Under the pieces are notes generated by a model. It was not told where the DNA came from. It ran no database searches and saw nothing but the letters and a program-made list of their open reading frames with translations. Below, in pieces: positions 41,509-44,230 of a stretch of 64,000 nucleotides of DNA. The stretch is from a virus. How positions within the stretch are numbered: position 1 is the stretch's first letter; each line of letters begins with the position of its first letter. The stretch lies in IMG/VR virus record IMGVR_UViG_3300008255_000002; one strand, given 5' to 3'. Both the position numbers and the translations under genes were made by a program.

Positions 41509-41940
41509 TCATTTTAGTTTAACTAATTCAAAATATGATATTGGTTCTAAAGACACATCTTCAAGTTTATTCCAAAATTCTTTAAAACCTTCTACATCTT
41601 TTTCATTTGGATCTTCTATATAAATTAATGTATGGGATGAAGGATCATGGATAATTTTTCCATCTTGCCCTATTACAACATGTACAAATCCATTGACGTT
41701 GTAATAATGTATGATGTATTTTCTTTTTTTAGGTTTGTATATTTTAACTAATTTATAATTAACCTCATCTTTTAAGTCTTCATTGACTGTTTCGAGCCAA
41801 TCCCAATCTTTTTCATCTTGACTCATTAATAAATGGAAGTTAACAAGATTTAGTGGTTGTTCAAGCAATGATTCAAGACATGCCAGTAAACAACCACCAA
41901 CCTTTGAACCATAACCAAATTTATTATATATCTTTTTCAT
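41509..41940 (-). CDS. Small papain-fold-like (Cys-His-Asp) protein
   Basis: GGCLLACL.SLL...HVVI...IIHDPS; TAATG-coupled to upstream gene. Confidence 0.55.
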   Translation of the reverse strand: MKKIYNKFGYGSKVGGCLLACLESLLEQPLNLVNFHLLMSQDEKDWDWLETVNEDLKDEVNYKLVKIYKPKKRKYIIHYYNVNGFVHVVIGQDGKIIHDPSSHTLIYIEDPNEKDVEGFKEFWNKLEDVSLEPISYFELVKLK

Positions 41941-44063
41941 TAAACAAGTTCTTTAAAGTTATTTAATGAATATATTTTAGATTTTTCATGTAATCCTTCA
42001 GGTGTTCTCATTCCAAAATATGTTACTGGTACATCTTTAGGAATATCTTTTTCATCATCAATAAATTTATAATAATCAGCTTTTGTTGTATATAAACTAA
42101 CAATATGATTAATTGTTATAAATTTCTTTTCTATCATGGTTTTTGCTTGTAATATTGATGACATCTTATTACTGTTAACAGTATTACAACTTACTTTACC
42201 TGTAGTATATATATCTAGCCATTTAGCTAATATTTTATTGTTCTTTATATAAAATACTAGTGGTAGTGCTACTTGTCCGGTTCCATTAAGAGTAAATTTT
42301 GTTTTTACTGTAGATGCCTCAAATGGTTTTCCTTTTTGTTCTTTATTTCTATTCATAAAACCAAAGAAACATTCTTCTACTTCATTAAATTTTTCACCGG
42401 AAAAAACATTAATAGTAGGAATAATGTACTTTATATTTTTACTTAGAGACTTGATATTTATATCAATAAACTCACTAGCTCCATCTGGAGCACTTATAAT
42501 ATCGCCACTATGGACACCATCTACAGTTTTAATAGAATCCCACGATAGATGATTTAGTAAATTAAATTTATCATCATAAAACGCAACACTTAAATCGTAA
42601 TCTGTTCTTTTTTCTTTTTGTTTCCAGTATACAAAAAATCTAATTAGGTCGCTATTTTCGATACTAACAATTGATCCTCGCGGTAATACATCAAATCCTT
42701 CGGATTTTGTTTTTTCTGTTAGAGGGAGTGCAATTTCATTTTCTAGCAAATCTTTATGAATAAATAAATATTTTGTATTTGGTATATCTGAACATAAAAT
42801 ATTATCGATGATATTATTGATTGTTAGCAGTCTATACGGATCAACTTTAATATACTGATTTGGCTTTACATAAGATTTTCCATTTTTGTTAATATAGATT
42901 TTTACGCTAATATCTCTATTATTTAGATGTTCTTTTAGGGATAACAAAACCCTTCTATTAACTTTGTGGATATTTTCTTTTAATGTTTCAACAAACATAT
43001 CAAATTGATGTTTGTCGCACTCGCGAATAACTTTATCTACATGACGAATAAGAACACCGGGTTTATCTGATAGTAACCTGATTACTTTATAATAATCGTT
43101 ATTATTAAATGATTCTTGTAATCTACTACCCCATGTTTTATGTTTAATATCTTTGTTAAGGACTTGATATAGTTCAATAGCCCCGCAATAACAAGGATAT
43201 TCATACGGATGTAGAATATATAATAACTTTTTAAATTGCTCGCGATACTTGATAGCATCATCAATTTTACTTTTATTTTTTGTTACTAATCTATGAATCT
43301 CCCCTAATAGAAATCTTCTGTATCCACGTTTCATGGATTTAAATTTCGTATTTTCGTTGAGGGTCACATCTCCATCAGATAGTTCGCAAGCAATCCTAAG
43401 AATATCAGTTAATGTATCAACTTGAATATATTGTGTTTTATTATTTCGTAATAGTTCCGCGAAGATAATTGCTCTATTTTCCCTTAAAGGACAAATTAAT
43501 GATGGAGAACAATGTTGATCAGAAACAAGATTTCTTAAAAGTTCTCTATCATTTTTATTAAGCAGAACGTTTGATTTAGTTAAATCTGAATATAGTTGTG
43601 TGATTTCTTCGTTTAATTTTTTACCAAGGTTAATTATCTTAAAATTATTTTTATTATCTTTAATTAATTCTTCTTGTTGAGAAAGCATTTCATCATATGT
43701 ATGATTATAAATCCCATAATCAATAATACCAAAAAAGAAATTTTTAATTATAGTATTAAACCAGAATTCTTCGTTCGATGGGACGTTATTCGGGAATTGT
43801 TTGAAATATGTATTATGTTTTACATGATCCCCAATCAACTCTCTAACCGAATCTAGTATTTTATTTGATAATTTAAAAAGATTTACTGTATCGAGACCAT
43901 TTAGATGCGTCATTACATTTGGAGATAACTTAAAACCAATACTCATTAATGTAATATCTAATTGTCTTACTAGTTCGATGGTTTGTTTTTCTTGATAAAA
44001 ATTATTTGTTTTCTGTTCTGGTAGAATTAATTTCTTCTGTAATAGAAAATTTTCGTAATCCAT
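41940..44063 (-). CDS. ROT/TROVE-like alpha-helical + C-terminal TerD-domain protein (RING-less)
   Basis: HNTYFKQFPNNVP, TDILR...SDGDVTL, LHPYEY, PGVLIR, LPRGS, RFFVYW, DYDLS, HSGDIISAPDGASEFIDI. Confidence 0.75.
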   Translation of the reverse strand: MDYENFLLQKKLILPEQKTNNFYQEKQTIELVRQLDITLMSIGFKLSPNVMTHLNGLDTVNLFKLSNKILDSVRELIGDHVKHNTYFKQFPNNVPSNEEFWFNTIIKNFFFGIIDYGIYNHTYDEMLSQQEELIKDNKNNFKIINLGKKLNEEITQLYSDLTKSNVLLNKNDRELLRNLVSDQHCSPSLICPLRENRAIIFAELLRNNKTQYIQVDTLTDILRIACELSDGDVTLNENTKFKSMKRGYRRFLLGEIHRLVTKNKSKIDDAIKYREQFKKLLYILHPYEYPCYCGAIELYQVLNKDIKHKTWGSRLQESFNNNDYYKVIRLLSDKPGVLIRHVDKVIRECDKHQFDMFVETLKENIHKVNRRVLLSLKEHLNNRDISVKIYINKNGKSYVKPNQYIKVDPYRLLTINNIIDNILCSDIPNTKYLFIHKDLLENEIALPLTEKTKSEGFDVLPRGSIVSIENSDLIRFFVYWKQKEKRTDYDLSVAFYDDKFNLLNHLSWDSIKTVDGVHSGDIISAPDGASEFIDINIKSLSKNIKYIIPTINVFSGEKFNEVEECFFGFMNRNKEQKGKPFEASTVKTKFTLNGTGQVALPLVFYIKNNKILAKWLDIYTTGKVSCNTVNSNKMSSILQAKTMIEKKFITINHIVSLYTTKADYYKFIDDEKDIPKDVPVTYFGMRTPEGLHEKSKIYSLNNFKELV

Positions 44064-44080
44064 ATTGCACCATTTAAAAA

Positions 44081-44149
44081 ATAGGAAATCAAATTAGGTA
44101 AATAAGATAAAAATGTTATATTTTAGAAGGAACCTAATTTATAGCCTAT
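44081..44149 (-). ncRNA. Structured RNA element, unit B
   Basis: ATAGG-CTAT-AAATTAGG-TTCCTTCTAAA...TTA-CCTAATTT-GATTT-CCTAT. Confidence 0.7.
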
Positions 44150-44151
44150 CT

Positions 44152-44230
44152 ATATTCCAGGAAAAGCATTATAAGTAATAATAAGTTTATAATCTAATTT
44201 AGAAGGAATTTATAATATAGCCTGGAATAT
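44152..44230 (-). ncRNA. Structured RNA element, unit A
   Basis: ATATTCCAGG-CTAT-ATTATAA-ATTCCTTCTAAA...TTAC-TTATAAT-GCTTTT-CCTGGAATAT. Confidence 0.7.

Follow-up and report, generated by a model that had tools for sequence, protein, structure and literature searches.

The viral DNA analyzed here (IMG/VR record IMGVR_UViG_3300008255_000002; the whole 64,000-nt stretch is called the window, and coordinates refer to it unless a locus is named) encodes on its minus strand a 707-aa protein, P0001, composed of a helical-repeat region and a TerD-fold domain, and two tandem structured RNA units on the same strand precede this gene. The two units are genuine members of a large, uncatalogued family of structured RNAs, termed handle RNAs here, that adjoins the helical+TerD gene. 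They are probably small RNA genes in tandem, or processed modules of the 5' leader, that co-evolve with the helical+TerD protein and are most likely bound by it. The fold of the RNA, its covariation and its exclusive linkage to the gene family are established here, as are the TerD fold of the protein and the position of Ro60 as the best, albeit weak, fold match of its helical part. An earlier reading of the window sequence alone (the original prediction) had proposed structured RNAs cognate to the protein in a system resembling Ro60 and its Y RNAs. The core of that proposal is upheld by gene linkage, covariation, conserved unpaired motifs and YrlA-like modules in related loci, while the TROVE likeness of the protein is the weaker part.

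Handle RNAs and their linkage to the helical+TerD gene

The two units share one architecture. The 10-bp outer stem of unit 1 (ATATTCCAGG/CCTGGAATAT) is followed by CTAT, an inner stem (ATTATAA/TTATAAT) and a loop that begins with TTCCTTCTAAA; read as RNA, this loop comprises 35 nt, starts with (A)UUCCUUCUAAA and ends with UUAC, and the 3' bulge is CUUUU. Unit 1 departs from the family model by one unpaired position atop the inner stem and by the 5-nt length of this bulge. In unit 2, an outer stem of 5-7 bp, (AG)AUAGG/CCUAU(UU), leads through CTAT into an inner stem (AAATTAGG/CCTAATTT in the DNA) that forms 9 bp as RNA (UAAAUUAGG/CCUAAUUUG) and opens with a U-G pair; its 34-nt loop has the same start as that of unit 1 (UUCCUUCUAAA) and ends with UUUA, and the 3' bulge is AUUU. 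Both loops are A/U-rich and contain no T- or D-arm motif. Six U residues stand directly 3' of unit 2, and the distance from position 44081 to the ATG at 44063 is exactly 17 nt, or 15 nt when two extra pairs are counted. The coordinates, stems and 17-nt spacing given in the original prediction were found correct by sequence reading, by RNAfold and by a repeat search, which returned a perfect 10-nt inverted repeat and a 29-nt direct repeat with a spacing of 76 nt. RNAfold reproduces both structures with z-scores of -2.4 and -2.6. Such modest values are weak by themselves because the DNA has only 23% G+C, and the comparative test is the real one.

For this comparison we fetched 177 homolog loci (17 viral, 80 metagenomic and 80 genomic; 991 kb in total); for viral contigs an alignment served as query, a scan with the single protein having given no match. 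Counts of the 9-mer TTCCTNCT[AG] across these loci were 111 for the gene strand versus 15 for the opposite strand, and the occurrences cluster immediately ahead of the gene or immediately behind it. A stem parser recovered 33 units with the common geometry ..GAGG, CCA or CUA, U plus eight pairs, UUCCUUCUA ... YUA, nine pairs ending in CG, CUYU and CCUC... The resulting family consensus combines an outer stem of 6 bp, closed by G-C pairs, with a CYA bulge, an invariant U-G pair opening a 9-bp inner stem, a loop that starts with UUCCUUCU and ends with YUA, and a 3' bulge CUYU of 4-5 nt. Loop lengths range from 16 to 160 nt, with the conserved motif retained within.

Two covariance models were used: R1, built from the 33 units (alignment A2), and R2 (alignment A5), built without any window sequence. 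When the whole window was scanned with R2 with filters off, only the two units matched, at 41.1 bits for unit 2 and 38.6 bits for unit 1 (E 5e-9 and 2e-8), and the next best site scored 10.8 bits. The R2 matches lie at 44080-44150 (unit 2; 52.5 bits with R1) and 44156-44226 (unit 1; 48.5 bits with R1 at 44157-44226), and both units align across all 66 model positions.

Altogether, R1 yielded 250 matches in 166 of the 177 loci, all but two of them on the gene strand. Handle RNAs were present in every one of the 80 bacterial genome loci, scoring 48-68 bits and starting ~25-30 nt past the stop codon, and in 86 of the 97 viral and metagenome loci, with one to five matches each and arrays of up to 3-5 copies. 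Nine of the 11 loci with no match are contigs ending at or close to the gene. Two 33% GC jumbo-phage contigs (L012 and L013) have the homolog with full flanks and no handle match; the 209-nt upstream spacer there may hold a more divergent RNA. Each gene copy in five whole genomes (7-12 Mb) had a single handle match, and these genomes contained no further match at E<=0.01; in one of them, the gene and the match both occur twice. The association spans phages and at least two bacterial phyla, with GC contents from 23% to 70%.

The original prediction had read stems that vary while pairing is kept, next to conserved unpaired motifs, as the signature of a structured RNA, and the related loci bear this out through heavy covariation. 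In alignment A2, both partners vary at 13 of the 15 pairs (171 cells; extra pair types, 52), and pairing falls to 43-51% in slid controls. Since possession of stems was the criterion for admitting units to A2, the percentage of pairing there is partly circular; this objection does not apply to the diversity of pair types at a constant geometry. Among 111 covariance-model matches, which apart from the two window units come from loci outside model building, 12 of the 15 pairs covary. Near-fixed pairs delimit the inner stem, with U-G at the lower end (32/32 and 105/109 in the two sets) and C-G at the upper end. Conservation of the unpaired elements CYA, UUCCUUCU, YUA and CUYU holds from 23% to 70% G+C; actinobacterial copies read CUUCCUUCUC. 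Such fixed unpaired nucleotides beside freely covarying helices have the look of a protein-recognition site, as far as can be judged from sequence.

No Rfam family matches the units, either across the whole window at the gathering threshold or in the region 43900-44400 at E<=10, and a megablast search of 41500-45800 against 50,697 phage records gave no match. Collection of the upstream regions of homologs, a covariance model and an Rfam search had been suggested along with the original prediction; the outcome is a motif that recurs beside homologs, covaries and is explained by no Rfam family. Neither the literature, where our coverage of the relevant papers was incomplete, nor Rfam provided a description of the handle RNA or of its link to a helical+TerD protein.

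In the Streptomyces loci (L099-L177), TGACTGnTAGCGTTG is common between the stop codon and the RNA, ~10-25 nt ahead of the latter (for instance, L155 4075-4103). Judging by its sequence, the TAGCGT within this spacer could be a candidate -10 element, giving the RNA a promoter of its own.

The helical+TerD protein and its RING-bearing paralog

P0001 has 690 relatives at E<=1e-3, about 700-730 aa in length and mostly unannotated, hypothetical or labeled 'TerD family protein'. They originate from large phage contigs, Streptomyces, Actinomadura, Kitasatospora and other Actinobacteria, and a Chloroflexia metagenome-assembled genome; the closest show ~43% identity (ENA/Logan). The AlphaFold2 model of P0001, based on 43 homologs, has a pLDDT of 86.5 and a pTM of 0.84.

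The original prediction of a TROVE-like helical region followed by TerD holds firmly for the second part. The TerD beta-sandwich matches five TerD or SCP2 structures with Z 14.7-17.8 (9a6r_B, 17.8; 2qng, 17.2; 3ibz, 17.0; 2kxt, 14.7) and a Foldseek E of ~1e-7. The Pfam TerD profile (PF02342) scores 14.2 bits on P0001, under its cut-off of 25.3 bits, and reaches 25.7-26 bits on the homologs P0005 and P0024. The fold is that of TerD/TerE/TerZ proteins (PF02342; PDB 2kxt and 3ibz), and their calcium-binding motif GD..G...E is partly kept (HSGD...DGASEF in P0001). In contrast to stand-alone TerD proteins of ~190 aa, which are encoded in ter operons, the domain forms a C-terminal module of a 707-aa protein. 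We know of no RNA partner for the stand-alone TerD proteins.

For the first part, the likeness appears at the fold level and is weak. Residues 1-460 were re-folded alone (pLDDT 84) and compared without a pre-filter to 48,161 PDB representatives. The top two of all of them were Ro60 proteins, namely 9l5y_B from phage phiLo (Z 7.8, 260 residues aligned, rmsd 4.9) and 2nvo_A, the Rsr protein of D. radiodurans (Z 7.5, 243 aligned); Xenopus Ro (1yvp_A) gave Z 5.6 with 271 aligned. Other matches had ~95 residues aligned or an rmsd above 12 A, and unrelated repeat proteins reached Z 6.5-7.0. With the full model, the best matches outside TerD were again D. radiodurans Rsr, phage phiLo Ro60 and human Ro60 (Z 6.1-7.5, 318-336 residues). 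A search of PDB sequences with the family profile (hmmsearch) retrieved TerD only and no Ro60. Overall, the Ro60 likeness of P0001 in this model is a structural analogy that lends suggestive support, not a demonstrated homology.

The architecture cited in the original prediction, that of a RING-containing family minus its RING finger, agrees with the profile results. P0001 matches NCBIfam NF041916 (MXAN_6230/SCO0854, RING_SCO0854) at 305.7 bits (E 7e-91; cut-off 600 bits), with the best stretch at profile positions ~380-730, and contains no RING finger. Being below the cut-off and RING-less, it is therefore a paralog and not a member. NF041916 presumably corresponds to the Pfam prokaryotic RING family architecture of an alpha-helical domain, ROT/TROVE-like repeats and TerD (labeled Prok-RING_4 in the original prediction).

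True NF041916 members were found in 13 of 81 sampled Streptomyces genomes. They have the helical and TerD core in common with P0001, as well as a handle-like RNA beside the gene on the same strand; they differ in the presence of the RING finger and in the divergence of this RNA, which is located upstream. The variant handle was detected by R1 at 20-33 bits in 13 loci from the 13 genomes. It precedes the gene by ~50-120 nt in most of them and by ~300 nt or more in a few (L191, L194). In these Streptomyces copies (among L190-L204) the variant keeps UUCCUUCU and the overall geometry, and its internal loops read CUC and ACUCU. The RNA therefore tracks both protein branches with branch-specific handles, a pattern that, at the sequence level, would be expected of co-evolving partners.

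Likeness to Ro60 particles and alternative readings

YrlA RNAs are tRNA-mimicking partners of bacterial and phage Ro60 that are encoded beside its gene, and GNCGAAN0-1G near the 5' end has been proposed as the bacterial Ro60-binding motif (PMC4201824, Chen et al. 2014); a phage example is the phiLo Ro60 (PMC12135203, PDB 9l5y). When eighteen related loci were searched against Rfam at E<=0.1-1, only tRNA and sub-threshold YrlA (RF02553, gathering score 69 bits) matches were obtained. The YrlA matches lie inside handle-flanked units and score far above chance, with 46 bits (E 4e-7) in L010 (2756-2860), 40.7 in L003 and 37.9 in L090. A pattern search identified at least 13 loci in which the handle is followed by a permuted tRNA-like module consisting of a T arm, a tetraloop-closed acceptor-like stem and a D arm. 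The window units gave no RF02553 match, at E<=10 in 43900-44400 or at the gathering threshold across the whole window; missing the tRNA module, they are 'minimal' forms comparable in concept to the shorter YrlB.

The two systems have several traits in common. Small RNAs are encoded in tandem beside the protein gene, their 5' and 3' ends pair into a stem interrupted close to the base by a conserved, asymmetric internal loop, and the distal module is variable, with some handle relatives carrying a permuted tRNA mimic of the YrlA type. On the protein side, a helical-repeat region, whose best (weak) fold matches in P0001 are Ro60 rings, precedes a metal-binding accessory domain. Both systems also occur in phages, near tRNA or RNA-repair genes. 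However, the C-terminal von Willebrand factor A (vWA) domain of Ro60 with its MIDAS (an adhesion site that depends on metal ions) is replaced by the TerD beta-sandwich in P0001, which also has an extra N-terminal region of ~150 residues and gives no TROVE signal at the sequence or profile level. The handle RNA has a consensus of its own (CYA / U-G / UUCCUUCU / YUA / CUYU), and its 5' strand GGCYAUG resembles but does not equal the Ro-binding motif.

A number of observations weigh against protein-bound small RNAs of a Ro60-like particle. The canonical GNCGAAN0-1G is not present as such, the family consensus being GGCCAUG and the window sequence GGCUAUA. The Ro60 matches with Z<8 fall in the range of chance helical-repeat matches, Foldseek gave nothing significant for the helical part, Pfam TROVE (PF05731) does not match P0001 at E<=0.1, and hhalign of the family alignment A1 against 20 Streptomyces Ro60 orthologs returned a probability of 0.1%. 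A scan for sigma-70 promoters and terminators around the units revealed nothing above shuffled sequences. The sequencing runs containing this phage are DNA metagenomes (aquifer, groundwater and hot-spring), with no RNA run among them; metagenome contigs are identical across the units, so that there are no natural variants to compare. The handle RNA is located upstream of the gene in this phage and downstream in Actinobacteria, and a single cis role therefore cannot be general. Finally, canonical TROVE (Ro60) genes occur in 31 of 61 sampled Streptomyces genomes, including one that also has a TerD-family gene (G001, the genome of L103, with its TROVE gene at 8553293-8553472). The two systems therefore coexist, and the RNAs could in principle serve another protein.

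The sole piece aligned by hhalign, 33 columns long and not significant, sets the family motif RIFVNRxG opposite the Ro60 MIDAS strand LVLVDRSGSM. RIFVNRxG lies at P0001 residues 386-398 (window ~42870-42908), in a beta strand after the helical repeats.

Of the competing explanations, a purely cis-acting leader survives best, and we consider it unlikely. Under it, the units would form an autoregulatory operator or a ligand sensor for translation or stability of the 707-aa mRNA and would not be separate small RNAs. Their place in the 5' leader, with unit 2 close to the AUG, agrees with this idea, and roughly a dozen further low-GC loci, in addition to L001 (8 nt) and L010 (18 nt), likewise have the RNA upstream and close to the start codon. 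It is at odds with the position of the RNA past the stop codon in all 80 actinobacterial and Chloroflexia loci, with arrays of 3-5 copies, and with copies that contain tRNA-like modules typical of stable YrlA RNAs. Moreover, a protein-binding operator is compatible with RNAs bound by the helical+TerD protein and does not replace them.

It is less probable still that the RNAs serve another factor, such as the host Ro60, tRNA-processing or tRNA-modification enzymes or the ribosome, and are merely co-regulated with the TerD protein gene. In whole genomes there is one RNA per TerD-family gene copy and none beside the TROVE gene or elsewhere. The association also survives transfer between phages and at least two phyla over the GC range given above, and the handle variant tracks the RING paralog, as expected of direct partners. 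These facts stand against the attraction that tRNA-like modules would have for tRNA enzymes, the coexistence of TROVE genes in the same Streptomyces genomes, and the pyrimidine-rich UUCCUUCU, which we take to resemble the 3' tail of 16S rRNA.

The remaining two explanations are effectively excluded. Intrinsic terminators or mRNA-end stabilizers, acting on the upstream transcript in this phage or on the same transcript in Actinobacteria, are very improbable despite the six U after unit 2 and the downstream location in Actinobacteria: the terminator scan was negative, most Streptomyces copies have no U run after them, the stems are broken by conserved internal loops, the loops are 16-160 nt long with a conserved motif, and the gene would be shut off by termination 15 nt ahead of its start codon. 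Inverted repeats arisen by chance, or a dispersed repeat in A/T-rich DNA, to which the modest folding z-scores and short-motif counts not above chance inside the window might point, can practically be dismissed in view of the E values from the independent model, with no other site in 64 kb, and of covariation across hundreds of loci.

Genomic context, proposed mechanism and significance

The features of the window are listed in Table 1. The stop codon TAA (44199-44201) of a NAMPT gene remnant falls inside TTCCTTCTAAA of unit 1, and the 5' half of this unit therefore overlaps the tail of the pseudogene; the RNA array thus abuts or has replaced a decayed nadV-like gene. The 143-aa Cys-His-Asp protein, considered a possible partner in the original prediction, is not supported in this role, since tblastn detected no homolog of it in the 177 related loci. 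Among six other neighboring ORFs searched in the same way, five had no match and a 157-aa ORF (39910-40383) had one weak match (L038, E 8e-4). tRNA arrays adjoin the TerD-family gene in many related loci (L001, L002, L003, L090). The sole plus-strand block in this part of the window (47819-52992) encodes a 487-aa protein of unknown function, a DUF3431/DUF6171 protein, a radical-SAM protein and a 'reversibly glycosylated polypeptide' homolog (PF03214, E 1e-37).

Table 1. Coordinates of the RNA units, the P0001 gene with its domains, and other features of the window
Feature	Position	Strand	Details
Handle RNA unit 1	44152-44230	minus	79 nt; 10-bp outer stem, CUA, U-G and 7 more inner pairs
Handle RNA unit 2	44081-44149 (44079-44151 counting two extra pairs)	minus	about 70 nt
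707-aa helical+TerD gene (P0001)	41940-44063	minus	translation; phrog_33734, E 1.5e-53
Helical-repeat region	42708-43607	minus	P0001 residues ~153-452; best structural matches are Ro60 rings
TerD-fold domain	42129-42695	minus	P0001 residues ~457-645
143-aa ORF (Cys-His-Asp)	41509-41940		translationally coupled, downstream of the 707-aa gene; weak PHROG match, function unknown
NAMPT/NAPRTase gene remnant	44199-44575	minus	C-terminal, ~125 codons, one frameshift near 44327-44342; Pfam NAPRTase, E 3e-7
GT-B glycosyltransferase gene, complete	44644-45765		NAMPT remnant directly after it
RlaP-domain protein, 425 aa	53673-54950	minus	PF10127, RNA repair pathway Pol-beta nucleotidyltransferase, E 5e-23; distance to the handle RNAs ~10 kb
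tRNA gene	63061-63145	minus	Rfam, 57.5 bits

With the RNAs as probable partners of the helical+TerD protein, we infer that the protein binds them, that they are processed to discrete species, that autoregulation takes place and that the particle serves in RNA surveillance or repair, in the following manner. The protein would bind the conserved handle of each unit. Four elements make up this handle: the outer-stem base (..GG/CC..), the asymmetric CYA/CUYU internal loop, the opening U-G pair of the 9-bp inner stem, and UUCCUUCU, unpaired on the 5' side of the loop. The resulting particle would be of the Ro60/Y type, made of a helical-repeat ring protein, an accessory domain that binds a metal or ligand (vWA in Ro60, TerD in P0001) and a stem-anchored RNA. 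Its variable distal module would be a YrlA-type tRNA mimic in some relatives and only an A/U-rich loop in the window copies. In this phage, the RNAs are presumed to be co-transcribed with the gene, and the units may be cut from its transcript and stabilized by the protein. As 15-17 nt separate the end of unit 2 from the AUG, bound protein could also repress its own translation, so that binding beside the ribosome-binding site would feed back on translation in this phage. The RlaP gene of the window and the tRNA arrays beside many relatives provide the context in which the particle may act in RNA surveillance or repair.

A wider proposal can be made tentatively, and we hold it with less than even confidence. 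Helical+TerD proteins, with or without RING, and handle RNAs might constitute a second, Ro60-independent class of Y-RNA-type ribonucleoproteins in Actinobacteria, Chloroflexia and large phages, in which the module selects targets or tethers effectors and TerD makes the particle responsive to Ca2+ or to a nucleotide-like stress signal; the phage particle might then protect or police tRNA and rRNA during infection.

Conservation of the Ro60/Y RNA particle extends from bacteria to humans, and the particle is a major autoantigen; debate continues over the way in which Y RNAs gate or re-target the protein. To our knowledge, the Ro60/Y RNA particle is the only one of its kind that is well studied. 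Relative to published knowledge, our analysis points to the pair of handle RNA and helical+TerD protein as an undescribed cousin of it. The genome-wide exclusivity of the RNA-gene pairing and the handle variant of the RING paralog are new in this analysis, and the window contributes an example from an A/T-rich phage, in which the 5' leader holds two minimal units. For RNA catalogues, the handle RNA is a new family. Streptomyces strains with the pair are culturable and genetically tractable, which makes the idea directly testable. If it is true, a second, independently diversified protein-RNA pair would offer a natural comparison for the roles of the stem handle versus the variable module, and a function would be given to an uncharacterized protein family that hundreds of Streptomyces genomes and numerous large phages encode, as well as to its RING-bearing paralog.

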